IMG/VR virus record: IMGVR_UViG_3300020172_002590
Span: 17,458 to 81,457 of that record
Source: a virus
Lineage: Duplodnaviria > Caudoviricetes
Reading direction: 5' to 3' (one strand)
DNA length: 64,000 nt
Under the pieces are notes generated by a model. It was given only the letters and a program-made list of their open reading frames with translations. It was not told the origin of the DNA and ran no database searches. The first letter of the stretch is position 1. Every line of letters begins with the position of its first letter. Below, in pieces: positions 1,794 to 63,999 of the stretch. The position numbers and the translations under genes were made by a program.

Positions 1794-1802
1794 AACCCCT
1801 CC

Positions 1803-2385: not shown

Positions 2386-2446
2386 GACCTTTTTAATTTC
2401 TTTACAATTATATCCCTGTGTATTATATACCTAAGGATATTTACAT

Positions 2447-2898: not shown

Positions 2899-2908
2899 TT
2901 TATCTTTC

Positions 2909-3599: not shown

Positions 3600-3614
3600 T
3601 TTTATCTTTCTTTT

Positions 3615-3824
3615 TTATTGTGGTTTAGGGATACAGACACGCGAACAATATGCGGAACTATTTTCTTCATAAATAATTCCCTTAATTAGTTCTCTTTTAC
3701 AAGTTGGGCAAACAAAAGGAGCAGCGTTTTTCAAGCCGAAAAACTTAACAGTTTTTCCTGGCAATGCTTTGCTCATATCTTTACTTTGTCCAGCAATTGG
3801 TTTTGCTGGCTTTTTACCTGCCAT
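3615..3824 (-). CDS. Small basic Zn-finger protein
   Basis: CPTC...YCSRVC; GGAGA RBS. Confidence 0.75.
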   Translation of the reverse strand: MAGKKPAKPIAGQSKDMSKALPGKTVKFFGLKNAAPFVCPTCKRELIKGIIYEENSSAYCSRVCIPKPQ

Positions 3825-7760: not shown

Positions 7761-7762
7761 AG

Positions 7763-7835
7763 CGCTTTCAGTAAGATTCGAACTTACAACCTACTGATTA
7801 GAAGTCAGTTGCTCTATCCATTGAGCTATGAAAGC
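7763..7835 (-). tRNA. tRNA-Arg (anticodon UCU)
   Basis: Cloverleaf GCTTTCA/TGAAAGC, anticodon arm ACTGA-CTTCTAA-TCAGT, T-loop TTCGAAT; CCA not encoded. Confidence 0.95.
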
Positions 7836-8686: not shown

Positions 8687-8701
8687 CTTAATGCAATATA
8701 G

Positions 8702-8775
8702 TGCCGAATATAGGAATTGAACCTATTCAAAAAACTTATAAGGTTTTCTCCGTCAAACCGTTCGGACCATTCGGC
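8702..8775 (-). tRNA. tRNA-Ile (anticodon UAU), atypical D-arm
   Basis: GCCGAAT/ATTCGGC acceptor, TCCG/CGGA D-stem, AAAAC-CTTATAA-GTTTT anticodon arm, ATAGG-TTCAATT-CCTAT T-arm. Confidence 0.85.
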
Positions 8776-36393: not shown

Positions 36394-37445
36394 GCTCTTT
36401 TAATGTATGGTTGAGAAACTTTCTCCCAAGTCATGTGCTCATTGATATACAATGCACTTTCATATGTGCGTTGTGCAACTGATGAATAGTTCTCAGCAAC
36501 ATAAAGCATTTTATCACACAAGTCGTCAAATTCTGGTTCTGCCCATTCACCGCAGTCTTCGTATCTTCCAAACATACGCCATGTGCCCCATCTAAAGTTA
36601 AGCGGTACTGACATATGAGCAAAATCTTTACAAGCCAATACATCTGTGCAGATTGTTGGGATACCTTTAGCAATTGCTTGGAATGGCAAGTTACCCCATC
36701 CTTCTCCGCTAGTCGGATATATAACGCAGTCTGCCATGTCAAAGATTCTTCCCAATTCTTCATGAGATACTTCATCATCAATCACTTCAATTTGGGGGTG
36801 TCTAAGACCATGCATTTCTCCACCTCTATAAATTCTTCCATCAGGTTCACCATTGGATTTATAAATTAAACGGTAGTCATCATTGCCCTCAAACATTCTT
36901 AAAAATGCATCAACCGCCATCTGAGAATTCTTACGACTAGATGGTGATCCAATAGACAAGAATGTAAATGTAGAATGAGGTGTCCTTAACTTAGGGAAAT
37001 AGATATTAGGGTCAACACCTAACTTAAATTCATACACAGGCCGCTGAATTCCTGAAGCAATGAAAACCTTTTGCATGTCCAAACTGCATGTCCAAATCTC
37101 ATCCATTTGATTGCATAGTTTTACCCAATGATCGGGGAGTTTATTTGTTTCCCAGAATGTAAAACCGACAGAGTAAATCTTTGACTTAACAAACCCTTCA
37201 GGAACGGAATGGTTAATTACAATCTCATTTGTGCAATCATCCTTTTGCATATAACCAAGTCCAAGAAATTCTTGCATCGTGGCAAGTTCGGGTGGCACTT
37301 GAATCTTTCCAATCTCATCCCAATTTGTGGGCTTGCTTCTGCGGATTGGCAATCCGCTTGTGCCGATGAAATCCCATAGACGGTCAGGCGTATAGCCATA
37401 GCCTTCACTAAATTTCGGTATTTGGTTATCCGACCATACTAGCAT
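36363..37445 (-). CDS. GT4-like glycosyltransferase
   Basis: FTFWET...RKN...YPTSGEGWGNLPFQAIAKGIPTICT. Confidence 0.88.
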   Translation of the reverse strand: MLVWSDNQIPKFSEGYGYTPDRLWDFIGTSGLPIRRSKPTNWDEIGKIQVPPELATMQEFLGLGYMQKDDCTNEIVINHSVPEGFVKSKIYSVGFTFWETNKLPDHWVKLCNQMDEIWTCSLDMQKVFIASGIQRPVYEFKLGVDPNIYFPKLRTPHSTFTFLSIGSPSSRKNSQMAVDAFLRMFEGNDDYRLIYKSNGEPDGRIYRGGEMHGLRHPQIEVIDDEVSHEELGRIFDMADCVIYPTSGEGWGNLPFQAIAKGIPTICTDVLACKDFAHMSVPLNFRWGTWRMFGRYEDCGEWAEPEFDDLCDKMLYVAENYSSVAQRTYESALYINEHMTWEKVSQPYIKRAWEILEEVKS

Positions 37446-40400: not shown

Positions 40401-40830
40401 TAGAGATTGCACTACCCATGCAACCTGATAGTGCAATAATGTCATCATCAACTAATGATTCAAGAAGTTCAAAGTCCATTCTTGGTTTGTAATAAAAGTT
40501 ATTAGTCCAACCGATTCTTGATGCTTTAAATAACTTCTGCAAACCCTCGTTGTTCTTAGCCAAAAGAATTAAGTGATATCTTTCGTGCTTTCCATCACCA
40601 TCACTACCTACTGATGGAACAAAGTATGCTTCAATGCCAAATATTGGCTTTACATTTTGCTTATCACAAGCTTCTTGAAATTTTAAAACACCACCCATTG
40701 TCCCATGATCGGTAATAGCAGCAGCATACTGCCCATTCCTACTTGATGTTCTTGCAATTTCTTCTGGTGTTGACATACCATCCAATAATGAATATTCTGA
40801 ATGGCAGTGTAGGTGAACAAAATCAGTCAT
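37426..40830 (-). CDS. dnaE: DNA polymerase III alpha subunit
   Basis: PHP motif HLHCHSEYSLLDG, GRGSVGGS, PDIDLDF, FNKSHA; no intein. Confidence 0.97.
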   Translation of the reverse strand: MTDFVHLHCHSEYSLLDGMSTPEEIARTSSRNGQYAAAITDHGTMGGVLKFQEACDKQNVKPIFGIEAYFVPSVGSDGDGKHERYHLILLAKNNEGLQKLFKASRIGWTNNFYYKPRMDFELLESLVDDDIIALSGCMGSAISKAIENKNYARAEQLSERFIKIFKDDFYFEVQAWNPKNINDGLINLAEHFNKKVVGTADCHFPTHDDRGCEEVLLMVSQYPSMGAAEERLAKENSSIINDPSASVVDKINKMYPNRFLRFDEINPYVADADTVFSWFQEAGYSNASFLENTIEVADKCTARLQKRANLLPKYSKLFNSDDYLREITEFELQSRGYGEEYKTRLDEELAIIKQLGFADYFLIVWDLVKWADQNNIGRGTGRGSVGGSILAFLLDISKVDPIKYSLLFARFINPDRNDYPDIDLDFEDKRRHEVRNYLRERWGHDNVAAITTYGTYKPKSAVKDVSRVYQVPFQEINAITPYFETLEELETSDKGKIFCKKYPDVAKLSKQLEGRIRNAGIHAAGMVVSSIPLTDICPVETRKDVNSGVRSIVTAFDMEDAEAVGLIKIDVLGLKTVSVIKDCISKIKERTGVDVTEESLRLDDKAVYQNIANGNTVGVFQADAAAYRNLIERMGIDDFNDLVVSNALVRPGALLSQGKTYIECKKGEKKPRYPHPLVEDILRETYGTVIFQEQLMQMAVLLADFTWSEADKLRKIIGKKRDAAGFDEYREKFVNNKYITREKAEKIWADFELAALYMFNKSHAVAYSMLSYQTMWLKVYYPLEFTWALLCNEDSTDKITAYLMEAQRLGVKVLPPDINESDEYFTIGSEDGVEGIRFGLSNVQACGKTAIEEITSKRPFNSYDEFVNKCSKRAVRSNVKENLEKVGAFKSIGFESQYEHERYYLPILGFPITLASDRNEMDEFVEDIANFHEINSPLTLVKAVVRSTKKTPQYLRIEFEDASGSATVFAERDTEVAVRDYLYALIGDRTLHAFSDAFNYIDTPLHDFIKLRAKGLEHDFGWLYPSGLGSVNNEKTLLYIFHTRFFTTQTGKDMANLYCWDGEQIFKIVLFPSVFGKLKNIIKKNTWYAAKLAKIEDKKTLTRLDSYKIENERSMIPIEQYIDMKGLKNASMVG

Positions 40831-48046: not shown

Positions 48047-49339
48047 TTATACACCTTCAAGAGCCTGTAATCTAGACTCTAAATCATTAATCCTTTGCAA
48101 GAGGGTTTTTATGCCAGCAGCAAGAATTGGAGTTATTTTAGAATAATCTACTTGCTGGTACTTTGGATTGCCATTTTCATCAATAGCATCTTTTTCGCCA
48201 ATGACTGCATACGGTGCAACCTCTTGTAACTCATGGGCAATAAAGCCGTGAGACCATTCTTCAGTATTGCCCCAATTAAAGATTACTGGATTTATATTAT
48301 TTATTAAATCTTCAACATTTGATATTATTTTTATGTTTGATTTAAGCCTATAATCAGAACCACTATTATATGCAACCGTTGTGTTTGACACTGTAATACT
48401 GGCAATTGTGCTACCTTTTCTTCTAAAAGTTAAAACATCCTCAGCTCCGTTACCAGCCGATGTTTCGTTTAATACCAAACAAGAACCAGATCTTGTGAAT
48501 GTAGCAAAACCAGCATTGCTTAACCATCCACCGCTACTGCCTTGTCCACCACTTGACTGATTTGTATCTGTGCCAATACCTGCACTTGTTGTAACCAGTA
48601 ATTGATCAATACTTCCTTCACCAGTAATTGACAGACCAGGAGAGTCAACAGATGTTGATGTAATTTGTGTATTAGTAACAGTTCCACCAATATTACCTGA
48701 GACAGTCATACCATCAGAGTCAATTAAAATATCATAATAATATGATGGGGTAACAAAACCTGCTGGAATATACGAATGTAGATTCATTATTCCATTACTA
48801 TATAATGCCGTATAATTTGCATTCAGCGTTGGGGCTTGTCCTGCATAAATCTTATCTGAGCCTAAAGTCCAGCCGCCAATTGTTCCGCTATTTGATATGA
48901 CAGTACCCCTCATTGTCACATTGCTAAACTCAGCGTTACCATTGCTATATATTGCCCAACCAACACTACCGCTTTGGAATCCATTACTTTTAATAGTATT
49001 ATTAACTAAGATTATATTTGATGAAAGTTCATTCGCAGTAATTGTGCCTGCTGCTATCTCATTTGCTGTAATGGCATTTGCCTGAACTCTAATACCTCTT
49101 GGGTTTAAAACTCTTTCCTCAACTGCACTTACAATAAATGTTTTAAAGCTTATAACATTATTCTCCTCAAATGCTCTTCTTGAAGTGCCAACACTTGCAA
49201 CTGGATAGGTAACAAAATCAAAAATGGAGTATTTAGTATAATCAATTAAATTAGATGTTAAGCCATCATGTCGGTGACCAATATCTCTTTTAAAAATAAC
49301 TTGATTTTCATTTATATTAATTTTTGGGTCAATTGCCAT
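48047..49339 (-). CDS. Tail fibre with C-terminal intramolecular chaperone (peptidase S74)
   Basis: SDYRLKSNI...HGFIAHELQEV...VDYSKITPIL plus coiled coil; TAATG overlap gives the start at 49339. Confidence 0.9.
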   Translation of the reverse strand: MAIDPKININENQVIFKRDIGHRHDGLTSNLIDYTKYSIFDFVTYPVASVGTSRRAFEENNVISFKTFIVSAVEERVLNPRGIRVQANAITANEIAAGTITANELSSNIILVNNTIKSNGFQSGSVGWAIYSNGNAEFSNVTMRGTVISNSGTIGGWTLGSDKIYAGQAPTLNANYTALYSNGIMNLHSYIPAGFVTPSYYYDILIDSDGMTVSGNIGGTVTNTQITSTSVDSPGLSITGEGSIDQLLVTTSAGIGTDTNQSSGGQGSSGGWLSNAGFATFTRSGSCLVLNETSAGNGAEDVLTFRRKGSTIASITVSNTTVAYNSGSDYRLKSNIKIISNVEDLINNINPVIFNWGNTEEWSHGFIAHELQEVAPYAVIGEKDAIDENGNPKYQQVDYSKITPILAAGIKTLLQRINDLESRLQALEGV

Positions 49340-52300
49340 TATGTAACCTTCCTTAATGTAAGAGATTGAGTTAAAGATTCGCCATACCCAAATTCTTGTG
49401 ATATTACCCAATAATCTTGATTTGTAAGATCAAATGAATTAAATGATGTAATTCTAATTCTATCACCTAATTGAATTTTTGGGACACACATTGTATTAAT
49501 TGTTATAATTGGAACAGGATCGCTTACTTTTTCAATTATAAAATCAGCCAATTTTTGAGCATGTTCTTCTGATGTGATATAGGGACTTTCAATAGTTAAT
49601 TCTTTCAAACCATACTTACGGATATTTTCAGAAAGTGAATCTTTTTTTTCAGTAATTTGAGCATTGTTCAAAGTAGCAATAACTGGGTTTCCACGAATTT
49701 CAAAAGAAGATATAATTTCGGTTCTTGGGTCTTCTCCCTGCACATAGATATGATTGTCATAATCAACATTTGCTGATGCTGAGAAGATCAATCTAGCTGT
49801 ATACGGACCGCTTTCAAATTTAATTATGTCAACAGTATTTGGTTCATCATAAACAATTCCGGTTGATATAGGATACTTAACCGCAATTGCTGGCTTTTTA
49901 TCATATGTAACTTCATATGATCTAGCCTCTCTTATTTTTGTATTGGCAGCAACATTGCCAAGAATTGGAGTCCCGAACTTCCCTCTTTCCACATTTAAAA
50001 AATAATTATCAGATTTAGAACGATATCTAACAATTTCAGTTTGTCCAGCGCTAGTAAAAGCTAAATAACCAACATTAGGAAATACTGGGCTTGTCGTTGA
50101 AGAAACATGGATTCCATCATGCGATGAGAATATTGGTGATATTAATTTAACAACTCCAAGTGTTGTTTTGTCTTCTACTGCCCATAAAACTTCTGGGAAA
50201 AGTGTAACTTTTGTAACTGCTGATATCTTTACAACAACTTTATTTGTTTGCAATTGAACATTCAAACTGCCATCGATAATATTTGTTGTATCACTAAAGC
50301 TATATTGAATATTTGAATGTTGATCTATTGAAGATTCAAAAAATCTATTATAATGTTCATACCTAGCAAACCCTTCTTCATCTATATAAAATCTTCCTAA
50401 ATCAGCCAGTGTAATTTCATCAATAGCACCTCGTAGATTTTCCTGTTCTGAATAGACATATGGGAAAATTGCGATGTAATCAATTTGTGAAGATATATAT
50501 CTATTTTTAACTTCTTGTGATGTTAGACACTTCTTGTATATTGCAAATTCATCAATAATCAATTCTCTTGCTGTTGATGGAGCTTGCTCTGCACCAGATG
50601 CAACATTGTAATAAGAACCCCTTCCGCCAACTGTGATATCAGATTGACTTAAGACAACATTCCCATTTACTGTACTTGTATTTTTTAAATCACCATTTAT
50701 ATAATACGATAACAAATTACTTGCAGAATCGTAACTTACCAAGATGTGGTAAAATTCAGATTGTAAAAGGTCAGTTGTATCAGAAACAGATGCTGTTGTC
50801 GTTGTTGGTCCTGTTGTTTTAATTTTAAAACCATGACTTGATGTATCATTATAATAGAATTCAAAACCATTATTTGGATTATTATTAGCCCAGCAAGAAA
50901 GATATTCTCCATCACCAGTGGAAAAATGTCCATCATTAAATTTAGCTATTAATTCAATAGTAAAATCTTCTTCTGTAACTGCAATTGATTCATGATTTGG
51001 AATTCTTATGTATGCACTATTTGTTAATAATATGCCAGTATTATCGTTATCAGATACCAATCCAGTTGCATAACTTAATTGAGCATTACTATGAATAAAG
51101 GCATCATTTTGATGATGATTTAAACTAATATCATTTATAGCGTATGTAGTTGGCACAATTCCAGTTAAATTTCTTGATCCAAGACCATCTCTTGCGACAA
51201 CTGAACGGAATTGCGCTGCATTCAGTAATGTTTTTGTTGAAGATATATAGGAATGCAAACTCATTGAAAAATTTGCATTTCCTGGACCATGAAAGAAATC
51301 GATTCTTATCTTATAAGGAACGCCAGCAGTTAAGTTTTGACTAATTGTTGTCAAAGATACAGATGAATTTTCCCCATAGGATTCAGCCAGTAGAATATCG
51401 TCTATGTAAATACGACCTCCACCATTTGAAATATCAAGAATAAGACTTTGTGAGCCTGATGTTTTGGGGAAATAATACCCGTCTACGACTCCGTTAAAAT
51501 ACTTTGTATATGTAACAGAGTTTACATTTCCCAAGAATGAAAAATTAGACAAATTTAGAGCATTTGCATTTGAAACAGATATTTCTGTTGATATTCTAGT
51601 TGAGTCTGGGACTGCATAGACAGCTTCTCCTTTTATTCTTTCTTCAACTGATATATTCTTTTCTAGAATATCTGCTTTAATTGTTTTATAGTCGGCTTCA
51701 AAACCTGGTCTCATACCCCAGAATCTGCATCTTAATCCTGGATTAAGAGTTGTCAGCACTCCATTTTTATCAATAGCATCTTCACTAAAAGAATACCTAA
51801 CAACCCCGCCAAGTTGGGAAATCCCCTTGCTGTACGGAAGATTATGTGAATAGTCTGCTTTTGGAAAGTTTCTTCTCAAAACAAGATTTTGGACAGCCTC
51901 ACTCATTGTTTTATTTTCAACTAGGAAACCATTTGTTAATTTTGTTTCAGATAAAAATTTTGACCAATCAGATCCTGTTACAGATACGGTCATATCGCCA
52001 GTTGAGGTTGTCCATTCATCTACATAAAATGTACCCATAGATACATATTCATAGGGATCAAATTGAACAATAGAGCCAGCTGTATGAGAATTTGCGTCAG
52101 TTTGCTGAATTCCTCTTTCTGAGAGACTGATTGTATTAGTTGATGTTACAGCATTGCATAATATAATTTCTCTATTTTCTTTATTTGGATTTAGTGTAAC
52201 AATAAAATTATTATTTACTCCGCCAGTTGGAAAAATATCAGAATTAATAACGGACATGGTATTTGCAGAGTTGCTTAGATTTGATCTAAGAGTAGTTGTA

Positions 52301-53253
52301 GATACTGTATCGTTTGTTTTTTTAATTCTCCAACCAGTTGATATAGTCAACTTTAAATCTTTTTTCATATATTTACCATAAGTTGAAGATGTGTTAAAAA
52401 CATTCCAATCTTTATTGGTATTATCAAGCTTTAATGTTAACTTAGGTGTTTGTGTACCACCTATTGGCAAGCTGCTTTCATGAATATCTCTAGCTCTTGA
52501 AACACTATAATCAATTACATAATCAGTTATATCTACTTCATATATTGGAGATATTTCATGTATTCTTGCACAATCTAATCCGTTTTTTGTAGAAAGAATT
52601 GTTAATTCAATTCTTTTTGCTAAAAAGTTAGATGAAATAGCGTTATTGCTATTTAAATATATGTCCTTATAATAATCATCATCTCCAAAAACAACAGTTT
52701 GATCAAGGAGGTCAATTAAAGAAGCGTCTTTGACTTTGATTCTAAAAGACTTTACCTGACCATAGAATTCAGATGTTGTTACTCTAATTTTGTTAACTTT
52801 TCTTTCTTCAAAAGCAACGGTTACAACTGGCGATGACGCAAAAACACCGTTTGCTTGACTTCTTGTTTTTGACCACCATCCAAACTCAAAATCACCGTCT
52901 AATTTATTATCTTCATCAAGAGTTGTTGGCATACAGTGCCAACTGCCATCAGCAGTAATAATCTTCCCATTTTTATCTAAAGAGTCAGTTACTGCCCAAG
53001 TAAAAGATTCTCTTTCATATCCATTAATTATTTGTCTTTCTGAAAAGTAGTAGCCAACGGAGCCTTCAGATTTTACAACATGAGCATCAGTATTAGTAAT
53101 ATTTGCATTACCTGTTAAAACATTTTCTAATACTAAATGACGACTATCAAGAAGATCTATAAGAACTTTTGGCTTTACATTTTGAGCAGGCGATTGTATA
53201 GCATTATTAAAGTTACTGGACAGGGTTGTGCCATATATACTTTTTGTTAACAT
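49339..53253 (-). CDS. Large minor tail/hub protein with PA14-like and LamG (ConA-like) domains
   Basis: GRIYIDD...LTAGVPYKIRIDFF (PA14-like); FYHILVSYD...YYINGDL...IDEFAIY (LamG); IQLGDRIRI C-terminus. Confidence 0.8.
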   Translation of the reverse strand: MLTKSIYGTTLSSNFNNAIQSPAQNVKPKVLIDLLDSRHLVLENVLTGNANITNTDAHVVKSEGSVGYYFSERQIINGYERESFTWAVTDSLDKNGKIITADGSWHCMPTTLDEDNKLDGDFEFGWWSKTRSQANGVFASSPVVTVAFEERKVNKIRVTTSEFYGQVKSFRIKVKDASLIDLLDQTVVFGDDDYYKDIYLNSNNAISSNFLAKRIELTILSTKNGLDCARIHEISPIYEVDITDYVIDYSVSRARDIHESSLPIGGTQTPKLTLKLDNTNKDWNVFNTSSTYGKYMKKDLKLTISTGWRIKKTNDTVSTTTLRSNLSNSANTMSVINSDIFPTGGVNNNFIVTLNPNKENREIILCNAVTSTNTISLSERGIQQTDANSHTAGSIVQFDPYEYVSMGTFYVDEWTTSTGDMTVSVTGSDWSKFLSETKLTNGFLVENKTMSEAVQNLVLRRNFPKADYSHNLPYSKGISQLGGVVRYSFSEDAIDKNGVLTTLNPGLRCRFWGMRPGFEADYKTIKADILEKNISVEERIKGEAVYAVPDSTRISTEISVSNANALNLSNFSFLGNVNSVTYTKYFNGVVDGYYFPKTSGSQSLILDISNGGGRIYIDDILLAESYGENSSVSLTTISQNLTAGVPYKIRIDFFHGPGNANFSMSLHSYISSTKTLLNAAQFRSVVARDGLGSRNLTGIVPTTYAINDISLNHHQNDAFIHSNAQLSYATGLVSDNDNTGILLTNSAYIRIPNHESIAVTEEDFTIELIAKFNDGHFSTGDGEYLSCWANNNPNNGFEFYYNDTSSHGFKIKTTGPTTTTASVSDTTDLLQSEFYHILVSYDSASNLLSYYINGDLKNTSTVNGNVVLSQSDITVGGRGSYYNVASGAEQAPSTARELIIDEFAIYKKCLTSQEVKNRYISSQIDYIAIFPYVYSEQENLRGAIDEITLADLGRFYIDEEGFARYEHYNRFFESSIDQHSNIQYSFSDTTNIIDGSLNVQLQTNKVVVKISAVTKVTLFPEVLWAVEDKTTLGVVKLISPIFSSHDGIHVSSTTSPVFPNVGYLAFTSAGQTEIVRYRSKSDNYFLNVERGKFGTPILGNVAANTKIREARSYEVTYDKKPAIAVKYPISTGIVYDEPNTVDIIKFESGPYTARLIFSASANVDYDNHIYVQGEDPRTEIISSFEIRGNPVIATLNNAQITEKKDSLSENIRKYGLKELTIESPYITSEEHAQKLADFIIEKVSDPVPIITINTMCVPKIQLGDRIRITSFNSFDLTNQDYWVISQEFGYGESLTQSLTLRKVT

Positions 53254-54248
53254 TAGACCTCTTCCAAACTTAAATTACACTCATACAAGTATACATCTTC
53301 TGAGATGTATCTTCTAGTCAAAGTTTCACTATAATCTCTTACAAATACTGTATATGTAGATTCCGTATATGGGGTTGTCCCCGACTCATTTTGATTTATA
53401 ATTTTCAACTCATGAGCATCTGGGTCTTCAGCAATGGAATGAAGGAAGTCTCTTCCATGTCTTGAATCAACAGTGTCTTCCATTGCGTTTGGCAAATCAG
53501 TCCAAGCAATTGTGAATTGTTTCCTGCCCGAAGTTGATTCTCTTTTATAATATCTATTTTTTTTATTATTCCAATTAACTGTTTCAACAAAATTTGGAAC
53601 TAAAGATATATCAAGTTTTCTTTGATGATTTGTTAAAGGCTTACCATCTAATATCAATAATGTTCTTATAGAGGTTTCATCAATATATGATGGAGAAAAT
53701 CTAATTGGTGGATTTATTATTGTTCTAGACAATATTGAAAATTGATGCCTTAGTGCTCTAACAGGAGTTGAACCGCCAGGAAAAGATGTTGTTACAGACA
53801 AACTAGATGTAGAAGATGCTTGAGCAATTTTTATTAAGTTAAAAATTCCAGATAGATTAATTGAAATATTAGAATTAGTTTCTGTAATCTTTCTTGCAGA
53901 ACAAGAAATGCTTGACTCAATTGAGACAGAACTTGATGCAAAAGATGTTTTTGATGATGAAATAGATATAGAAGATTCAATTCGGACAATTGCAAGTGGA
54001 ATATATATATCTGCCAATACTGATTCAGTTATTAATTCTATTACAACTTCAGAAGAAGCATTTGTTACCTTGGTAGCAGAAAATGAATTACTTGATTCAA
54101 TTGAGATTGAAGATGAAACATTAATAATTTTTGTTGCAGATGCCGTAACTTCTGTATTAATAAAGGAATTAATATGAATTATTTCAGCACCAATATAAAA
54201 ATCTATATCGCTAAGTTTTGGACCTATTTCATAATATTCTTCGGTCAT
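53253..54248 (-). CDS. Tail protein: Ser/Ile-rich 20-aa repeats plus distal-tail-like domain
   Basis: C-terminus paralogous to 54248-54667. Confidence 0.75.
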   Translation of the reverse strand: MTEEYYEIGPKLSDIDFYIGAEIIHINSFINTEVTASATKIINVSSSISIESSNSFSATKVTNASSEVVIELITESVLADIYIPLAIVRIESSISISSSKTSFASSSVSIESSISCSARKITETNSNISINLSGIFNLIKIAQASSTSSLSVTTSFPGGSTPVRALRHQFSILSRTIINPPIRFSPSYIDETSIRTLLILDGKPLTNHQRKLDISLVPNFVETVNWNNKKNRYYKRESTSGRKQFTIAWTDLPNAMEDTVDSRHGRDFLHSIAEDPDAHELKIINQNESGTTPYTESTYTVFVRDYSETLTRRYISEDVYLYECNLSLEEV

Positions 54249-54667
54249 TATTGCTCACCAAGACCTATTGTAACATCATAGTAAGCACAAGCATTACCAA
54301 TATCCCTTCTAACCAGTTTTTCTGTATAAGAATTAACAAAACATGTATAAGTTTCAAATTCATCCGTTGGCGACATTTTTATAGATATAGTTACTGTACC
54401 TCTGGTGTTAGATATAGAATTAAGGTAGTCTCTTCCTTTTCTGCCATCAACAGTTTTATCAACAGTATTTGGAAGATATGTAAAAGTTAGGTTGAAGTCT
54501 TTTTTATTTTTTCTAATGTATCTTCTAAAAACTCCCCTTCCTAGTTCAACATCCGTTCCTGATTGCACAATAGTCATTGAAAATTTTCTATTATGTTCTG
54601 TTATTTCTTCACCGTTGATTGTAATAAGGTGTGTTAAACCTGTTTGCTGGTTCTGTATTGCTGGCAT
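54248..54667 (-). CDS. Distal tail (Dit)-like protein
   Basis: Directly downstream of the tape measure; beta-rich, 139 aa. Confidence 0.7.
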   Translation of the reverse strand: MPAIQNQQTGLTHLITINGEEITEHNRKFSMTIVQSGTDVELGRGVFRRYIRKNKKDFNLTFTYLPNTVDKTVDGRKGRDYLNSISNTRGTVTISIKMSPTDEFETYTCFVNSYTEKLVRRDIGNACAYYDVTIGLGEQ

Positions 54668-57600
54668 TATAGACCTCTATTAATTCCTCTATAGGTTGAG
54701 ATAGTTGTATTATTCAACCCAGCAGCCTTTTGGTTTTGCGGGGCTACATTAATATTATAGTCTTTCATCATTGACTCAAACCACTGCTTTTCACCAATAA
54801 AGTTATCAACATAAATATGAACAGTTGAAGTAGAAGATGTTTGTGGCTGTACAGGGCCAGCATATGATGGAGATTTTGGAGTATTAAATCTCATATCGTT
54901 AATTGCTTGAAGGGCAGCAATTCCAAGATTTTTTACAGCATTAGAATTTACAACATATTCTCCACCGTGAAGCATTGCTGGAACGCCTTGTGAAGCGAAT
55001 GCATTAACAAATCCACCATTTGCATAACCACCAATTCGATTTGTAATAGAAGATTTTGACTCCCCGGTTACGCCTCTTGCGTTTTCCATAATTCTTCTTA
55101 ACATTAAATGAGTTCTTGTTCTAACATTTGCATCTCTAAAAACATTTCCCTCACCTAAAGTATCTCCCATCATTGAAGTATAACGATTAAGATATGGACC
55201 CAAGTTAAAATCTATATCATTCAAGTTAGTAGGATTATGTTCTCCACCGAAAAGCTCAAGGAATCTTACATTGGGGTCTAATTTTTGAAAAATTTCTTTC
55301 AATTTAATTACTAAAGCTTCAGAATGAACAGAAGTGCTTCCAGGATAGATTGTATCAATATTATTTGGAACCATTATGTCTGAGTAGACATAAGAAAGCA
55401 TTTTCATTACATCAATTGCAGAACCAAAAGAGTTTCCTCTTTGCAGAACGCCAACACTAAGAGTTTTGTATTCTGGATCAATATAAAATGAAAAATCAGA
55501 TGTGTTACCATAACTTCCATCCGAAAGTGGTTGCCAAGTCTTTATCTCGTAACGATTACCCCTTGCACCACCTTTCTCTACATTTAAAATCATTTTATCC
55601 ATGAGTGCTTTATATTCTTCTCTGCTTGATAAAACCCCTTTCATTCTTGCCATTCTAATTGATCTAGATATATGTATGTTTTTTAAAACTCTTTCTCTCA
55701 TTTGGGCTTGTATCTGTCGTTGGCTAATATAAGATGTATATTTAACCATATCAGTAGGAAGTTTTCTATTAACTACTCTACCCGTATATAAAGCATCCAT
55801 AAATCTATCAAAGTCTGAGTACCCATACATACTAGGAAAACTATCATCTATACGAGAAGGAATCTGTGCTAGACTAAATGCATTTTTAATTTGTTCATCA
55901 GAAAAACGCCCAGATGAACGAGCTATACGCCAGAAATCACTTACTGGCAATGATGCTTCTCTGAACGCTGAACTTCCAGGCTGGACAATAGGCATTCCCA
56001 ATGTCCTATACCACATTCTATTAGCTATATCACGGGTTGAATAACTACGATAAGGATCTGTATAAATGCCATAGAATCTTTGGTGTATTGCATGAGCCCT
56101 ACTGCGTATATTCTGCACATGACGAGAATCAAAACTATATGGCAGTGTTTCTCTACGCAGAACATCTCCTGAGTCAGATGCTGTTGCACCGATAAGATTC
56201 AAAATTCTTCCAGTTTCTTGAGATAATGTTGGTCTCAAACCTGCTGGCATTGGAATTCTTGTTCCTGGGAAGAACTGTTCAATATTAGACGCTTCTTGAA
56301 TTGTTTTTTGCAAATTTGAGACACCCTTTATCCCCTTACCAGCACCACCCATATATCCAGCGTTTTTATCAAAAATTGTTGGATTACCTGCAATTGCTGC
56401 ATAGGAGGCAAGACCCCATCCTAAACGGCTAAGATTACTTCTATTCTTATCAGCTGCATTAGCTGCAGACATTATTCCACCACTTGGAGTAAAGTCCATC
56501 CCAGTTCTAATCATGCTCATGCCCTGTCTTAGAGCTTCATTAGCATAAATAGAGCCAGGGGGCGCTTCATAATCTGATATACCACGGGGATTAAAAACAC
56601 TTGCGTTTTTTGTTGCCTCTGCAAAACCTTTGAAATTATCGGTATATGAACCACTTGTGCCAGTTCCTTGACCATACATTGCGCCAAACATTTCTTTTTG
56701 TAATCTATTCTTAACCGCCCTAAATGGAGAAGTAACAGCAGAAGTGAATTTACCCCAAAGACTCTTTTTCTTCTTTTTTACTTCTTCAGTTGCCTTACTT
56801 GTAATTCTTTGAATCTCCCAACCGTCAATAGCATCAGCCATTCTGAACTGTCCAGCAGATGTTTTATTACCTTTAACTAAACCGCCTTTTTCAAAACTTT
56901 GGATAAGACCGCCATTAAACATTTGATCAAGAGGTATTCTTTGAGCAACGCCTGGCACTGATTGTGGCCAAGGACTTGAAGAAATAATGGAAGGTAATTC
57001 TGGATTTGGCATTCTTCTAAACAATTCTAAAAGTGTTTCAATAGGATCTTGAGCATAATTTCCACTTCCTACATTTGGATACATAAATCTAGAATTAGCT
57101 ATATTCCAATAATCACGACGAAGTGCTGGATTTAATAGAGTAGCTGATGGCATTCCAATACCAAATGGCCCATACGGAGAAAAATCTGGATTCAGTTGAC
57201 CTCTTATAAAACCCATTAAGTCATTAAGTTGTCGGATATAATATTGCCCCGCTACTTGTGCCATCTCAAGTTCATCTGGAGAATAGATTTTTTGCCCTTT
57301 CTTTTTAGACCTTGATCTTGCTTTGACTATTTCTTTAACAGATGCTTTTGTTTTTATTGACTTAATAGGGTCTTTAAGCATATTTAATTCATTAAAGTTT
57401 TCAAGAGCTTGTTGCTCTGTAGGAAAATAACTTCTACCTATGCTAGGTTGAAAATCAATGCTGTTAGGTCTCCAGTCAAATATGCTAGGTGTAGCAACTT
57501 CAATTCGGGGATCTAACTCTGCCATCATGTCACTAAGTTGTCTTGATAGCGCATAAGAGTACTTAGAATAAGAACCATTAGTTATTCTTGTAACATTGTT

Positions 57601-60600
57601 TGGCTTTATAACATTCGCATATACATAAGCTAAAAGGTTAGGAACATCTGTTGATGTAAAATCTTTAAGACCGTATAGACCACCAATATTTAAATGTGTA
57701 CTCCCATCAGCCTGTGGATACATTCCAAAATTAAAAGTGCTACTGTTAAATAAAGCATTTTCTGGCACTTGATTTGCTATATCATAAGGGTTGACATTAG
57801 GTGGGAAACCTTTTCTGACCAAACTAACTGTATGACTCATACCGTCAATTTCATGCTGTAGAGATACATCTTTTAGACCAGGAAATTTAACTGCCTTAAC
57901 CTTATCCGCCTGTGACAATTTCCTAAAATAATCACCAGTAGAACCTCCAAATTCTTTTTCCAGTCTTTCTACAATATCAAATACAGTATTGCTAGTTCTA
58001 AAACCACCAGTTCTACCCAATTTTGATTTCTCAATATTTCCAAGAACTCTTTGCCTTAATAATTGTTTTTGAAGTCCTTGAATATATTTATATTTACTAT
58101 ATGCAATTTGATAATATTCTTGCAATGTAGTTGTGCTCATTGCAGAATTATACGGAACTAAATTATTAATATTCCTTTTAAGTGGAATTATATTTGCAAG
58201 AGCATCCAAGCCTCTTTCTTTAATTGCTGGCAGTATTTGTTTTAATGGGCTTCTTACTAGACTATAAGGTTCTTCACCTCTCAACAACCTTACAGCATCT
58301 TCTGCATACGCTTGATTTCTATAATCTTTACTAAAAGCAAGTCTTCCTCTGATGTAGTCAAGCATCGGAACATTCTTTGTAAGTCTTCTTGAGATTATTC
58401 TTGGCAGAGTTGGATAAAGAATCTTATCTTTTAGACCCATTGTATTTCTTGCATATCTATTTGCAAACATTTCTTGAAATATAGAGTTAGAATATAAATT
58501 GTAAGTATCTTTAACACTGCTAATATCACCAAAAACATCAGTTAGAGGATCATTAATTCCAGCTCCTACTAGACGAGTATCTGCTTGTGCACGAGATCTT
58601 CGCCCCTCTGCAAGATCATACCAAGCTTGACGGGCTGGTTTGTATATAATCTCATTAGATCCGCTTGTTATCCTTTTTGAGCCAGCAATTTGTTTTTTAT
58701 TTAGTAATCCCCTCTTAAGATAGAATAATTCTTCACTTATTTTACGGATTGGAGGAAATTTTGCTTTAAGAGGATTACTTATTTTATTCCAATAGAAATC
58801 AGCAATATCTCCTCTTCCAGTTTTTGTAAATACTTTTGGTACAGTCTTTATTCCTTTACCAAAGCCTTTTATAATTTTTGTTAAACTCATCGTTGGGTCT
58901 AGTCCAGCCATTGCAGCAAAGTCTCCACCCAATTGTGTGGCCATGTAGAGTTTGCTTCCTTCTTTGGATAGGCCAGTCTTGTCAAGACCAAAATATGCAA
59001 GCGCTCCACCAGGAGATAGCACTGTTCCCTTGCCAAGAATGTTTCTACTTCTAGATGCCTCTTCCATAGCTTTTTCGCCAGGGGTTGTTGGAAGGAAGCC
59101 AGCAAGCCCGAATGGACCTCTATCAAGACCATAAAGTTCTCTATAATCTTGTCCAGTTGTTATTGTTAACTTAGCTGCTTTAAGTCTCTGTGCAAGAGAT
59201 GTTTGCATCAATGGGCTTGCAACTAATTGGTTAAAGAGATTGCCATTATTTTGTCTTCTGCCAGTGCCTGGGAGGTACCCAGCAAGTGTGCTACCAAGAG
59301 CAACTCCATACTCTGGGATAAAAGATACACCAGAAATAAAAGATGACGTACCAATTTTTGCAGTGTTCGCAACGCCAGTAACTACTTTGCCAAGTGTTCT
59401 GTCCCAAAGACTCTTTTTCTTAGGAGCAGATTTCTTTGCTTCCTTATTGGCATTATCAATAATTTTTTGAAGCGCCCAGCCATCAATAGCATCAGCCATT
59501 CTAAATTGCCCTGCTGATGTTTTATTATTCTTACCTCTTACTAAACCACCAATTGCGTATTCAAATGGGGTGTATGCCTTTTCTCTTGGGTCTTTATATT
59601 GTTCTCCACTTTTTGTCATAAGTTGAGAAATTGGTATAAACTTACGAATTCCTGCAGAACCAGTTCTTGTGAACCCAATACCATCTCGTTCTGATACAAT
59701 CAATCCAACTCCAAAAGGATGATTCTTATTATTGTATCTATCATTCCTGAATGATTGCGGACTACCGAAGTGGAAATCGGATAAAGTGCCTGCATAAGTT
59801 GCCTTAAGTCTTGCGGCAGCAGTGCCTGATTTCTCTTTTACGCCATATTTACCCTTATAGCCAAGAGACCACATTCTATTATATACAACCATTTGTTGAT
59901 ATGGATCTGCATTATATGGAAAATCAGAGAATTCTAAACCTCCCCATTTTTTCCAGTTTTCATAAGAGATACCAAGACCACCGCCTGCATAGTCACCTAT
60001 ATTATTCCAGTCCTTACCTTCTTTTCTCCAGATTTCTCGCATGTAGTTGTAATTCATACCACCCATTGAGACTTGCCATTCATAAAGTGGTTTATATTTA
60101 CTATTTGCATTTTTTCTCAGTGTATTATAAAAATATTTATATTGTTTGCGAATCACAGCTAGTGTTGTATTAAAATTAGGGTCAGTTCCCATATTTAAGC
60201 CAGGGACTTCTAAAGGATCTTTTAATGGGGTAGGAGGTTTTGCTATGTTGTTAGTAGATCTTAATTCTCCACCTTTTGCAAAGGAATCAATCATTCCACC
60301 GTTTGCGTATGGTTTTGGCTTATATGTACCCTTATTGATCTTGTCCATCATTCCCCAACCGTATTTTTTAACGGCTGAGTTTCTTACTACATATTCACCA
60401 CCATGCAAGATTGCTGGAATTCCTTGTTGTGTTGGACCTTCTGTTGCACCACCCATTGCATATGGCATACCACCTTTAAAATAACTAGATGGAGTTAAAT
60501 TATAAGTACTATCATTTAACAAATACTTTGTTTTATCAAGAACCATTCTTGCAACCGCTCTCGCTTTATTTGCAACAGTTCCAGACTTATTCCAATTATC

Positions 60601-63600
60601 ATTTGTATTTTTAAAAGCAATGTCTAGATCACGAATTGATATATTTTCATTTGTTTTTCTTGGAAGGAAATATCCCAAAGTCTTTGACAAAAGAACACTT
60701 TGATTAGATTGAGGATATGCCCTCCTTGCTGCTGTTAGAATCGCTGTTCTTAAAGAGACAGCATCTGCAACTGTTGGAGCCGCAGTTACAGGAGTACTGC
60801 TATCTGCCCTCATTCCAGCATTATATAGACCTGTACCAAGTGCTATTGACTCTTGGCGAGTAAGTGCCCTGCCCCCTGTTGCTCCCCCAAGACCGGGACC
60901 TGTTGCGCCAGAAGTGCCTGCAGTACCAGCCCCACCAGCAGGATCACCTGTATCAACAAGTGACTGATATTTCTTGTAGATTTCAAAAAGCTTCTTAAAA
61001 GATTCAGATTTAGTATCAATAATTGTTGTTAGCGTATTTGTAAGTCCTTGATACTTTCTTGTTAGTGCATCAATACTTGCATCAATTGTTTTATTCCAAA
61101 CACCAGTTGGACCAAAGGGGTTATTGTCTGCAAGAGTTTTACCAATTGCCTCAAGAGAAGAAGTCAATGGTCCTGATGCATTAACTCCAAGTTGCGATAA
61201 AGCACCGCCAAAAGAGTCCGAGAAGACAGTCCCCATACTATTAGCAATCGCTCTTGCTCCAACAAAACCATTACCACCTTCAATAAGTTGGTTAAGCATT
61301 GTATTGAATTCTTCTGCAGTTGTTGGAGGGAATTCTGTAATCTTTTTGGCAGCATCGGTAAATGACTTAATCATGTCATCAAAATACTTACTTGCTTCTT
61401 GCTTTGCTAACTTAATAGAATCAATTAAGTCTGCTCTATTTTGCTCAGCGACTTCTTTTGCTCTATCTTGATTAATGTCATTAATCTTTTCGGTATCTTG
61501 TGTTTCTTGTCGGGCTGCTTGATCTGCAATATTTCTTGCTTCATCAATATTTCCAGCGTATACAGCCATAGCATAACTGCGTCTGCTATTTATTCTATTA
61601 AGGGATCTTTCAGCCTCTGCTTCTCTTAATCTATTCTGATATTCTTGTTCTTTTGTTAATCTGCCCTCTGCCTTAGCAACATCTTCAATTTTCTTTATTT
61701 GTTCATCATAAATTGCAAGTGCAGATTCTTTTTGATTTTTTAGTACATCTTGTATACTTTCAACAACACCTTGCATTGTGTCTTTAATACGATCTGCAAT
61801 TTCTTGTTGAAGTTCTTTCTTTAAGCCCTTAAGAACAGCAGCAATCCTTTTTGCACCATCTTCTGCTCCATCTTCAAACCCTTGGCCAGATTGATTAGCA
61901 ATTGTTTCTTGAGCATCGTCTGCATCTACATCAACGCTATTTTCATCTTTACCGCCAAAGAGATCAAGTTTGCCTTTACTCTTTTTGATACCACCTTTAG
62001 CAAGTTTATCAACAGCGCCTTTTGCTTTCTCAACTCCAGAATCAATGCCTCTTTTAAGCGTGTCACCAGCTGAGTTAACAGCATTTGCAACTGTTCTTAC
62101 AGTGCCTACATATGCATCTCTAGCATTTTTTAAACCACCTAAAACAGCACCACCTGCTGCTCCTAAGAATCTTCCAAGGATTGGTATTCTTTTAACTTGA
62201 CCTAAAACCCATTCAACAAAACCAAAAAATAAATCTGTTGCTTTTTCAATACCCCATGCCCATGCTTTCATAAAAGCAGTTGGAATTTCAAAAATCAAAT
62301 TAATAATTTGCTTAACAAGGAAACCCATTATTGTAATTCCAAGTTTTACAACACCTCCAAAGACATTAGCAAAAGCTGCTGCTAATGCTTTTAGGGCATC
62401 ACCCCATTTTCCTTGGAAAATATTAACAACAAATTTAACAAGATTTACAATTCCATAAAGATATGGTTGAATTATATTCTCTACCAACCACTTAAACATG
62501 TTTGCAACAAATTCGAGTACTTTTGTTAATCCATTAAAAGCGCTTCCAAGACCGCCAATAGCGCCTTCTGCGCCATCTGCACCACTGCCGAAGGAACTAA
62601 ACAAATCGACAATAGGTCTGACCAAAGATTCAAATGTTGTTTTTAATGTGCCAAGAACTTTTTTAATAGTTGCAAACCCAGAAGCGCCAGCTTGCTTGAA
62701 CTTGTCCATGTTTTTCATAACAAGCATTATTGCAACGCCAAGTGAAAGAATTATAACGCCTATACCAGATGCTATGAGAGTTACCTTAGTAAGTTTAATT
62801 GCATTATTGACTAATCCAAATGATTTTGCAAAACCACCAACACTTGCTTTCATTCTTGCAAAAGCGCCGGGGCCTGTGCCAGTAAAGGCTAGAGTTTCAA
62901 TTCGCAATAATCTTTGTGCTTCTTTTGCTCCTAATAATCCTTTTTGATACATACCAACAGCAGCAGTTGGAGCACCTTTGATCGCAGAAAGACTACTTGT
63001 TAATGCAGAAGATGATCTAGCACCAATTGTGTCATATGCTTGAAGAGCTCTACCTCTTATACCACCACCAGCAATTGAGAGCGCTCTTTCTTCTGAGATT
63101 TCTCTTCCGAGTCTCATAATTCTTCCACCGCCAAGAGAGGAAGATGGAGATGTTCTTGTTATTCCAGTTCTTTCAAAGGCTTGCTGTCTAAGGTTAATTG
63201 CTTCACCAACATCAGCTGCTGATATTGATCTAAAACCAGTTCTTCTTCCACGAAGACCAAATCCTTGTTCAATGTTATATCGTGTACCAGAGGCACCAGA
63301 TCTTCTTAAACCCATTTGCTCCATTGAAAACTCTTCTTCTGCAAATGCTTTACGAGCAGCAGAAGGGATTCTTGCGGTAGGGTCTAGGGGATCAATAATG
63401 CCAGCAGATGTTCTGACGAGTCTTCTTAGTCTAGCAGCAGGAGTTGCCCCACCGCTAAGCATTGGGTCAAGAGTAGGGTCTCCAGATAATGCTCCCCTCA
63501 CAGGCTTTTGAGACATTACTTCGCTTACTAAAGGAAGAGGGGCAGTTGTTGTTTTTTGAAGAACACCTGTCATCTCTCCAAGTTTTTTAGCCATGTTTGA

Positions 63601-63999
63601 GACTGGCCCATCACCACTTGATAATGTTGCAATAAATGTTGCAAATTTACCATTGGTATTTACAACAGTATCGCCCATAACAGTTAATGGCTTTGTTAAT
63701 TTAAGAAGACCATCTCTTGCTGCAAGGGATTCAATTGTCATTGTTTTAAGACTTGGCAGGAAACCAAACAAAACTTTTCCAATGCTACCCATCGCAAGTC
63801 TAAACTGACCAAATACGAAAATCAACGGACCAATTGCAGCAGTTGCTCCTGCACCTATAAGTGCCATTGTAGAAATTAACTTTTTAGTTCTATCATCAAG
63901 ACTGGACCATTTTTCAATAAGAGTCGTTGAAATGTCTGCAATTTTTTCTATTGCTGGCTTTACACTTTTTAGTATGTCGGAAGCAAAAGCTTTAAAGTT
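54667..63999 (-). CDS. Tape measure protein with C-terminal cargo domains (5' end outside the window)
   Basis: Frame open to the window edge; Ala/Gly-rich amphipathic and hydrophobic segments, coiled coil, two PAxLHGGEYVV motifs, Rpf-like domain. Confidence 0.9.
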   Translation of the reverse strand, partial: NFKAFASDILKSVKPAIEKIADISTTLIEKWSSLDDRTKKLISTMALIGAGATAAIGPLIFVFGQFRLAMGSIGKVLFGFLPSLKTMTIESLAARDGLLKLTKPLTVMGDTVVNTNGKFATFIATLSSGDGPVSNMAKKLGEMTGVLQKTTTAPLPLVSEVMSQKPVRGALSGDPTLDPMLSGGATPAARLRRLVRTSAGIIDPLDPTARIPSAARKAFAEEEFSMEQMGLRRSGASGTRYNIEQGFGLRGRRTGFRSISAADVGEAINLRQQAFERTGITRTSPSSSLGGGRIMRLGREISEERALSIAGGGIRGRALQAYDTIGARSSSALTSSLSAIKGAPTAAVGMYQKGLLGAKEAQRLLRIETLAFTGTGPGAFARMKASVGGFAKSFGLVNNAIKLTKVTLIASGIGVIILSLGVAIMLVMKNMDKFKQAGASGFATIKKVLGTLKTTFESLVRPIVDLFSSFGSGADGAEGAIGGLGSAFNGLTKVLEFVANMFKWLVENIIQPYLYGIVNLVKFVVNIFQGKWGDALKALAAAFANVFGGVVKLGITIMGFLVKQIINLIFEIPTAFMKAWAWGIEKATDLFFGFVEWVLGQVKRIPILGRFLGAAGGAVLGGLKNARDAYVGTVRTVANAVNSAGDTLKRGIDSGVEKAKGAVDKLAKGGIKKSKGKLDLFGGKDENSVDVDADDAQETIANQSGQGFEDGAEDGAKRIAAVLKGLKKELQQEIADRIKDTMQGVVESIQDVLKNQKESALAIYDEQIKKIEDVAKAEGRLTKEQEYQNRLREAEAERSLNRINSRRSYAMAVYAGNIDEARNIADQAARQETQDTEKINDINQDRAKEVAEQNRADLIDSIKLAKQEASKYFDDMIKSFTDAAKKITEFPPTTAEEFNTMLNQLIEGGNGFVGARAIANSMGTVFSDSFGGALSQLGVNASGPLTSSLEAIGKTLADNNPFGPTGVWNKTIDASIDALTRKYQGLTNTLTTIIDTKSESFKKLFEIYKKYQSLVDTGDPAGGAGTAGTSGATGPGLGGATGGRALTRQESIALGTGLYNAGMRADSSTPVTAAPTVADAVSLRTAILTAARRAYPQSNQSVLLSKTLGYFLPRKTNENISIRDLDIAFKNTNDNWNKSGTVANKARAVARMVLDKTKYLLNDSTYNLTPSSYFKGGMPYAMGGATEGPTQQGIPAILHGGEYVVRNSAVKKYGWGMMDKINKGTYKPKPYANGGMIDSFAKGGELRSTNNIAKPPTPLKDPLEVPGLNMGTDPNFNTTLAVIRKQYKYFYNTLRKNANSKYKPLYEWQVSMGGMNYNYMREIWRKEGKDWNNIGDYAGGGLGISYENWKKWGGLEFSDFPYNADPYQQMVVYNRMWSLGYKGKYGVKEKSGTAAARLKATYAGTLSDFHFGSPQSFRNDRYNNKNHPFGVGLIVSERDGIGFTRTGSAGIRKFIPISQLMTKSGEQYKDPREKAYTPFEYAIGGLVRGKNNKTSAGQFRMADAIDGWALQKIIDNANKEAKKSAPKKKSLWDRTLGKVVTGVANTAKIGTSSFISGVSFIPEYGVALGSTLAGYLPGTGRRQNNGNLFNQLVASPLMQTSLAQRLKAAKLTITTGQDYRELYGLDRGPFGLAGFLPTTPGEKAMEEASRSRNILGKGTVLSPGGALAYFGLDKTGLSKEGSKLYMATQLGGDFAAMAGLDPTMSLTKIIKGFGKGIKTVPKVFTKTGRGDIADFYWNKISNPLKAKFPPIRKISEELFYLKRGLLNKKQIAGSKRITSGSNEIIYKPARQAWYDLAEGRRSRAQADTRLVGAGINDPLTDVFGDISSVKDTYNLYSNSIFQEMFANRYARNTMGLKDKILYPTLPRIISRRLTKNVPMLDYIRGRLAFSKDYRNQAYAEDAVRLLRGEEPYSLVRSPLKQILPAIKERGLDALANIIPLKRNINNLVPYNSAMSTTTLQEYYQIAYSKYKYIQGLQKQLLRQRVLGNIEKSKLGRTGGFRTSNTVFDIVERLEKEFGGSTGDYFRKLSQADKVKAVKFPGLKDVSLQHEIDGMSHTVSLVRKGFPPNVNPYDIANQVPENALFNSSTFNFGMYPQADGSTHLNIGGLYGLKDFTSTDVPNLLAYVYANVIKPNNVTRITNGSYSKYSYALSRQLSDMMAELDPRIEVATPSIFDWRPNSIDFQPSIGRSYFPTEQQALENFNELNMLKDPIKSIKTKASVKEIVKARSRSKKKGQKIYSPDELEMAQVAGQYYIRQLNDLMGFIRGQLNPDFSPYGPFGIGMPSATLLNPALRRDYWNIANSRFMYPNVGSGNYAQDPIETLLELFRRMPNPELPSIISSSPWPQSVPGVAQRIPLDQMFNGGLIQSFEKGGLVKGNKTSAGQFRMADAIDGWEIQRITSKATEEVKKKKKSLWGKFTSAVTSPFRAVKNRLQKEMFGAMYGQGTGTSGSYTDNFKGFAEATKNASVFNPRGISDYEAPPGSIYANEALRQGMSMIRTGMDFTPSGGIMSAANAADKNRSNLSRLGWGLASYAAIAGNPTIFDKNAGYMGGAGKGIKGVSNLQKTIQEASNIEQFFPGTRIPMPAGLRPTLSQETGRILNLIGATASDSGDVLRRETLPYSFDSRHVQNIRSRAHAIHQRFYGIYTDPYRSYSTRDIANRMWYRTLGMPIVQPGSSAFREASLPVSDFWRIARSSGRFSDEQIKNAFSLAQIPSRIDDSFPSMYGYSDFDRFMDALYTGRVVNRKLPTDMVKYTSYISQRQIQAQMRERVLKNIHISRSIRMARMKGVLSSREEYKALMDKMILNVEKGGARGNRYEIKTWQPLSDGSYGNTSDFSFYIDPEYKTLSVGVLQRGNSFGSAIDVMKMLSYVYSDIMVPNNIDTIYPGSTSVHSEALVIKLKEIFQKLDPNVRFLELFGGEHNPTNLNDIDFNLGPYLNRYTSMMGDTLGEGNVFRDANVRTRTHLMLRRIMENARGVTGESKSSITNRIGGYANGGFVNAFASQGVPAMLHGGEYVVNSNAVKNLGIAALQAINDMRFNTPKSPSYAGPVQPQTSSTSTVHIYVDNFIGEKQWFESMMKDYNINVAPQNQKAAGLNNTTISTYRGINRGL

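Follow-up and report, generated by a model that had tools for sequence, protein, structure and literature searches.

A giant tape measure protein with a fenced internal region

The DNA analysed here (the window) comprises 64,000 nucleotides of a virus of the Caudoviricetes, bases 17458-81457 of the 81,457-base virus record IMGVR_UViG_3300020172_002590, which is 78% complete, and it carries on the minus strand the gene of a very large tape measure protein (TMP). TMPs are usually treated as rulers, sometimes with one small hydrolase motif. With moderate confidence we read the window's protein as a single giant TP901-type TMP with a passenger slot that is fenced by copies of a conserved sequence element, the joint; the passenger would be expelled ahead of the DNA and would probably still act as a ruler. 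The architecture can be described as a larger, more diverse version of the hydrolases known to be embedded in TMPs. The layout that we propose would be, in order: an N-terminal ruler/channel part (residues 1-1782), a first joint (J1), an Rpf-like domain, two modules (A and B), a terminal joint (J4) and a hub plug of about 50 residues. The whole passenger region would lie unfolded or loosely folded in the tail lumen, would probably still count as ruler and would be expelled ahead of the DNA on opening of the hub, and the Rpf-like domain would cut peptidoglycan locally.

The gene (54667..63999, minus strand; stop codon 54667-54669) has its 5' end cut by the contig end and encodes the C-terminal 3,110 residues (613-3722) of P0002, a TP901-type TMP of 3,722 residues that is identical to the window's protein and is recorded in full length on two contigs of up to 103,491 bases. 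Residue numbers without further mention are those of P0002; residue n of the window's open reading frame (ORF; 3,066 residues) corresponds to P0002 residue n + 656. The TMP domain PF10145 (PhageMin_Tail) has a precomputed match in the N-terminal region of full-length P0002, and it matched all eight full-length members of alignment A3 (nine rows; best E 1.2e-15). The window ORF itself gave no PF10145 match, as the domain lies outside the window.

The joint element

The original prediction had described a TMP C-terminal motif that occurs twice, the two copies being separated by a long stretch punctuated with mostly paired GG motifs. Every motif that it listed was found in its place. From the upstream end of the gene, and all on the minus strand, the motif scan gave: YFKGG (60483-60469), YAMGG (60462-60448), the first LHGGEYVV core (60408-60385), YANGG (60309-60295), FAKGG (60282-60268), YAIGG (59559-59545), MFNGG (56922-56908), FEKGG (56895-56881), YANGG (55026-55012) and the second LHGGEYVV core (54972-54949). 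An additional YAGGG (59991-59977, minus strand), which does not count as a joint, belongs to the transglycosylase-like domain. From the first core it is about 1,790 residues to the last YANGG and about 1,800 to the second core. The window ORF holds 11 [FYM]xxGG motifs as compared to 3.5 ± 1.8 in shuffled sequences (maximum 10 in 1,000 shuffles), and the long copies of the C-terminal motif are indeed homologous (51% identity over 43 residues, E 7e-10). The motifs are real marks of a modular architecture, as had been proposed.

We aligned 27 joint copies, taken from the window and 15 related loci. The joint is an element of 60-75 residues that consists of a GG unit ([FY]xxGG), a core and often another pair of GG units; the core has the consensus PA[IM]LHGGE[YF]V...AV...G...L..[IM]N, in which P, A, H, G, G, E and G are invariant. 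Two long joints occur in the window: the internal J1 (60268..60489, minus strand; residues 1783-1856), composed of YFKGG/YAMGG, the LHGGEYVV core and the trailing YANGG/FAKGG, and the terminal J4 (54820..55026, minus strand; residues 3604-3672), composed of YANGG and the LHGGEYVV core, which score 99.7 and 111.2 bits, respectively, against joint profile A1. The short joints at residues 2093 and 2972/2981 look like trailing GG units that lack a core (residues 1845-1856 versus 2974-2985: 75% identity over 12 residues). At the DNA level the two cores of the window are 82% identical across 44 nucleotides, and the joint DNA of diverged relatives is 65-78% identical with exact runs of 8-44 nucleotides; such stretches may serve as substrates for recombination.

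The joint profile matched the TMP of the cultured phage Douge twice (963-1028 and 1409-1470, E 5.3e-9). A tblastn search with a single joint sequence recovered 28 phage records, in which the matches fall in TMP genes or in unannotated or otherwise labelled ORFs, and the hosts of these phages include Vibrio, Stenotrophomonas, Gordonia, Rhodococcus, Mycobacterium and Streptomyces. Because of these matches in Douge and in phages of six host genera, the joint is, as far as sequence comparison goes, an old, widespread and conserved end-piece of TMPs that is not peculiar to the window's phage. The insert and the N-terminal part (N part) of the TMP, when searched by tblastn against 50,697 phage records, gave no cultured-phage match.

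Relatives and modular borders

Searching with the C-terminal 1,971 residues returned 227 proteins at E ≤ 0.001, with lengths of 1,710-5,443 residues, and the family statistics were calculated for the best 120 of these 227. The joint core is present in all 120 (P0002 included; the search pattern has a background of 0.027 hits per shuffled protein), with the last core at a distance of 95-110 residues from the C-end in 114. One joint copy was found in 11 of the 119 relatives, two in 96 and three in 12. In the single-core relatives the joint is situated about 100 residues before the C-end, and ten of these 11, of 1,814-2,056 residues, are without any insert. The span from core to core in the relatives is 296-3,073 residues, with a median of 1,350.

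The relatives bear out the expectation that the flanks are conserved and the middle is variable: conservation extends over residues 1 to about 1630 and over the C-terminal 120 residues, and the stretch between matches fully, partly or not at all. The N part (60490..63999, minus strand; residues 613-1782), a ruler/channel part with hydrophobic segments and helical, alanine-rich sequence, is 43-85% identical in collinear relatives over residues 1 to about 1630. The C-terminal 50 residues (54670..54819, minus strand) together with J4 form the most conserved part in most close relatives, with 68-93% identity where the N part has 43-76%; by analogy with Douge, lambda and T5, these 50 residues are probably a plug seated in the baseplate hub. 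Both joint copies are among the best-conserved parts of the TMP, about 45 of the first 65 positions of A3 being invariant versus sparse invariants elsewhere. Internal joints of different phages are more alike to each other than to terminal joints, and therefore the duplication of the joint is old and both copies are under selection.

To locate borders we collected pairs of family proteins that share at least 400 residues at 85% identity or more and in which the shared stretch ends internally, which gave 46 de-duplicated ends. The pairs are not independent. Of the 46 breakpoints, 18 lie within 20 residues of a GG unit or core, where 6.9 would be expected and none of 1,000 random sets exceeded 15; beyond the first joint this holds for 17 of 33, and 2 more lie within 40 residues. 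The pairs P0055/P0058 and P0069/P0074 have indels of 113 and 109 residues, respectively, immediately after J1, and P0019 corresponds to P0029 with an extra module and an extra joint inserted where a core ends. In comparisons with several relatives, homology blocks have their boundaries at residues 2078-2101 (YAIGG at 2093) and 2964-2989 (MFNGG/FEKGG). The aligned proteins show, at the level of sequence, that duplication of the joint creates a fenced slot, in which recombination has added, removed, duplicated or exchanged sub-domains in different lineages, frequently just behind the trailing GG unit. One survey of mosaicism among phage proteins was unable to confirm that it occurred recently in TMPs (PMC10684548); the close family pairs described here are cases of such recent mosaicism. 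High-identity breakpoints also cluster in the N part: about 10 of the 46 fall at about 63300-63530 (residues about 780-835), a second hot spot, at which no joint is present.

Cysteine is absent from all 3,722 residues of P0002 and from 118 of 122 family proteins; in 12 other proteins of the window it makes up 0-2.2%, and only one of these 12 lacks it altogether. Since P0002 and nearly all of its family are cysteine-free, the inserts would have been under TMP constraints for long, and the scarcity of cysteine argues against recent capture of the inserts from cytoplasmic genes. Of the four relatives that have any cysteine, one has a sortase domain among its precomputed matches, and another has metallopeptidase domains.

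The same composition bears on the question whether the gene is an artefact, i.e. a misassembled or falsely fused frame in which a TMP gene has been joined to downstream genes. The contig end inside the gene and the double occurrence of the C-terminal motif, as a two-gene fusion might give, would fit such an origin. We consider it very improbable: the frame runs for 9.3 kb without a stop codon and is open up to the contig end, the identical full-length protein is found on two contigs, more than 100 relatives from several sources have the same architecture, two joints occur in one annotated gene of the cultured phage Douge, and the cysteine-free composition is uniform across all parts.

The Rpf-like domain

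Between J1 and module A lies D1, an Rpf-like lytic transglycosylase domain (59560..60267, minus strand; residues 1857-2092), with a Pfam match below the cut-off at 59872-60003. The family, PF06737, matches four of the nine members of A3, and the segments homologous to D1 in P0016, P0029 and P0028 reach 37, 27.7 and 26.4 bits, respectively, against a curated cut-off of 27. A glutamate at residue 1939 (60019-60021) is invariant in all nine rows of A3 and is the putative catalytic residue. A search of the PDB with D1 alone gave nothing useful and no alignment to a solved Rpf, and a profile search of the PDB with A3 had the Douge TMP as its sole match. The original prediction had viewed the insert as an array of exchangeable enzymes; apart from D1, no domain of the insert belongs to a recognisable enzyme family.

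Modules A and B

Module A (56923..59559, minus strand; residues 2093-2971, 879 residues) opens with YAIGG (59545-59559) and has a head segment at 59377-59550 and a sub-domain 'c' at about 57478-57840. Module B (55027..56922, minus strand; residues 2972-3603, 632 residues) opens with MFNGG..FEKGG (56881-56922) and has its head segment at 56728-56886 and its sub-domain c at about 55231-55602. The two modules are paralogous (head segment 57% identity over 58 residues; later region 28% over 165 residues, E 4e-10). In module B a stretch of 31 residues (module residues 216-246; 56185-56277) is almost wholly invariant in all six rows of alignment A2, the rows of which are 44-77% identical overall. 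Sub-domain c is the sole part of the structure models that reaches a predicted local distance difference test score (pLDDT) of 50-79, and in both modules it gave a weak match to a GNAT-like fold, which we take as a lead only. The residues that are invariant in alignment A4 form a G-S-x-S-x-x-S stretch together with a D-P pair. The acetyl-CoA-binding loop motif of GNAT enzymes was not seen as a conserved feature of A4, which with its five rows is too small for this to be decisive. The G+C content is 0.337 at 54001-56000 (module B and the C-end) as compared to 0.372-0.392 across the remaining TMP gene.

Neither module has a match in Pfam, NCBIfam, the PDB sequences or the ESM Atlas. When the protein was divided into six pieces for the Pfam and NCBIfam searches, J1, A, B and the C-terminal piece gave nothing, the N-terminal piece gave sub-threshold rows at chance level, and D1 gave sub-threshold PF06737. 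The ESM Atlas matches of module A (best 0.79-0.81, including the PT-TG cluster) were at chance level and were not used; for module B there was no usable match. Among 1.84 billion representatives module B has six matches, four of them giant TMPs and two short proteins: P0122, which extends from the C-terminal part of module B to the C-end of the TMP, and P0123. For module A, a search among proteins of 483-1,539 residues gave no relative. Further copies of A, B or the joint are absent from the 81,457-base record (78% complete), a search for related loci with A and B found none, and one with the alignment of sub-domain c found two loci that were both already in the sample. No free-standing homologue of A or B was found in these searches; the modules were found only inside giant TMPs.

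Several of the observations weigh against the fenced-slot reading. The family statistics rest on the best 120 of the 227 proteins, sampled at lengths of 1,710-5,443 residues only. D1 itself scores 18.1 bits against PF06737, which is below the cut-off. The two AlphaFold models, made from shallow alignments of six and nine rows, are poor (mean pLDDT 38 and 36). The joint profile gave a borderline match to lambda gpH (731-774, E 0.13) and no score for T5 pb2 (last 258 residues, where 500 shuffles reached up to 8.5 bits). Finally, 14 of the 33 breakpoints in the insert region lie more than 40 residues from any motif, and the sub-domain borders at residues 1993-1996, 2151, 2644 and 2856 carry no GG motif. 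As breakpoints are enriched at the motifs, yet other borders are without a GG motif, the joints are preferred module borders and not the sole ones. The proposal that GG motifs act as recombination joints therefore holds in part: it agrees with the enrichment and with the borders of several relatives at the short GG motifs, but about half of the recent insert-region breakpoints are elsewhere.

Tail length and the ruler function

The composition of the insert differs from that of the N part: aromatic residues make up 10-15% versus 6%, and alanine 5-7% versus 12.5%. The description of the insert as globular and unlike a TMP is in line with this difference; the two structure models are too poor to show a folded state.

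It could be argued that the insert is mostly ruler, providing extra length for a tail of about 560-600 nm, with the joints as register or docking repeats and the domains as minor passengers, as in the TMPs of mycobacteriophages. Tail measurements lend some weight to this: in Douge a tube of 269.6 nm (PMC13033339) and a TMP of 1,699 residues correspond to 0.159 nm per residue when the entire protein is counted with its joints and insert, and deletion of the 114-residue hydrolase motif from TM4 gives tails that are about 20 nm shorter (PMC1796659). Gordonia phages with TMP genes of 9 kb are likewise described as having 500-nm tails, and the structure models, which are of low confidence, show A and B as mostly helical. 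We nevertheless hold this account to be rather improbable, as the insert has a composition unlike that of the ruler part, contains a domain of an enzyme family with an invariant glutamate and has a conserved beta/alpha sub-domain twice, and collinear relatives conserve the content of the insert and not its length alone. The opposite expectation, namely that tail length corresponds to the helical portion alone, runs counter to Douge, where the joint-bracketed insert counts toward tail length. A fenced passenger that probably still counts as ruler remains the reading that we prefer.

Comparison with known systems

Cell-wall hydrolase motifs embedded in TMPs have been reported for mycobacteriophages, i.e. 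motif 3 of TM4 gp17 and the Rpf motif of Barnyard (Piuri and Hatfull 2006, PMC1796659). The mycobacteriophage TMPs share with the window's protein a peptidoglycan-hydrolase domain inside the TMP, and Douge in addition shares the joint pair and a near absence of cysteine. In the Douge TMP (L047 1112-6211) the two joints bracket an NlpC/P60 domain (PF00877, 26.7 bits; residues 1295-1331), and its single cysteine is located in the NlpC/P60 motif. In the structure of Douge gp16 (PDB 8ZDO) only TMP residues 1658-1699 are resolved, in the hub (PMC13033339). As compared to TM4, Barnyard and Douge, the fenced region of the window's protein is large (about 1,750 residues, roughly half of the protein), it combines the Rpf-like domain with two large modules of no known family, and in relatives the slot is empty or differently filled. 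The available parts of the two papers (PMC1796659, PMC13033339) do not describe the joint pair for these TMPs, and in our literature searches no account of a joint-fenced slot was found.

The joints may also be sites of maturation cleavage, by analogy with the processing of lambda gpH to gpH* and gpHC or that of T5 pb2 to pb2* and pb2C. Lambda gpH is cut in its glycine-rich C-terminal region, with both the site and the catalyst stated to be unknown, and its residues 818-849 bind gpI (PMC12617516; PDB 8IYK). Like the joint, gpH has, once near its C-end, an HxGE[FY]V core with a GG unit on either side, and its extreme C-terminus binds the tip complex; it differs in having one copy, no insert and a match to the profile that is borderline. 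Lambda therefore cannot serve as proof that cleavage takes place at the joint. T5 pb2 is cut after R1127, between a hydrophobic stretch and a muralytic metallopeptidase motif, and the resulting pb2C of 92 residues is bound to the hub and has been proposed to be expelled into the periplasm (PMC10038345). In the T5 sequence this cut falls 2 residues before a GG and 16 before HGTE. As would be the case for the window's protein, the tail retains a C-terminal muralytic piece that includes the hub-binding end, and downstream of the cut there are a GG and an HxxE motif; T5 differs in its single cargo of 92 residues, its Gram-negative host and the lack of a score with the joint profile.

If every long and short joint were cleaved, the TMP would be a true polyprotein, from which a shortened TMP, the lysin, A, B and the plug fragment would be released, during tail assembly or ejection, as injected effectors. 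The position of the T5 cut, by which a muralytic piece is split off that remains in the tail and would be expelled, the placement of the weak gpH match (731-774) within gpHC, and a conservation of the joints that is stronger than a mere linker would need are all consistent with this. On balance we regard it as unlikely: no protease was recognised in family scans of the five ORFs downstream of the TMP or of the insert, T5 pb2 gives no score with the joint profile, and the tail length of Douge fits an uncut full-length TMP at the time of assembly. The core histidine, moreover, is replaced in Douge, and therefore a universal histidine-based autocatalytic site is unlikely. Cleavage at the joints is thus plausible by analogy, with some evidence against it. 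The idea that peptidases of the lambda gpK type process tail proteins at GG motifs was dropped as unsupported, no protease family being found in the five downstream ORFs. A more far-reaching proposal, which we hold to be unlikely, is that the joint is a self-contained maturation module in phages from lambda to those resembling actinophages, each copy of which would direct a cut, so that the lysin, A and B (GNAT-like) would be released into the host ahead of the DNA. If this were true, the slot would serve phages in general as a place where injected enzymes directed against the host or its defences are exchanged, and the cleavage site of gpH would be located.

The original prediction likened the TMP to polymorphic toxin cassettes. 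Polymorphic toxins, together with polyvalent proteins (Iyer et al. 2017, PMC5512222), are large multidomain proteins that are delivered into a target cell and exchange domains by recombination. The analogy holds loosely only: in the window's TMP it is an internal part that varies, and conservation is highest at the C-terminus, the record (78% complete) contains no stand-alone cassettes, and no processing peptidase was found. The term 'tape measure' does not occur in the paper on polyvalent proteins (PMC5512222).

More than 100 uncultured phages with genomes of roughly 100 kb have the slot that the fence motif defines, which takes up to about 3,000 residues of changeable, cysteine-free sequence. 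Should the passengers be active in the host, they would constitute a large and unexplored set of virion-delivered proteins, and if the joint is a cut site, this would address the open point of the gpH cleavage site in the lambda literature. The cultured phage Douge, which has a laboratory strain of Mycobacterium smegmatis as host, carries the joint pair, so that these ideas can be tested at the bench.

Genomic surroundings

The genes of the window are nearly all on the minus strand, and the TMP gene sits in a tail module, upstream of tip and fibre genes. The ORFs downstream of it encode 139, 331, 1,304 and 454 residues and are followed by replication genes; their matches include 'minor tail protein' and 'tail fiber' in PHROG, Peptidase_S74, PA14 and Laminin_G_3 in Pfam and, below the cut-off, Phage_Tail_Tip. 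The tail protein of 1,304 residues (49339-53253, minus strand) has PA14 and concanavalin-A-like lectin domains and is probably the receptor-binding hub or central fibre, and the tail fibre of 454 residues (48047-49411, minus strand) ends in a Peptidase_S74 intramolecular chaperone domain. The alpha subunit of a DnaE-type DNA polymerase III (37426-40830, minus strand) is 38% identical to its best cultured relatives, which are from Streptomyces phages of roughly 125 kb. Two tRNA genes, for Arg(TCT) and Ile(TAT), are located on the minus strand at 7762-7835 and 8701-8775, respectively.

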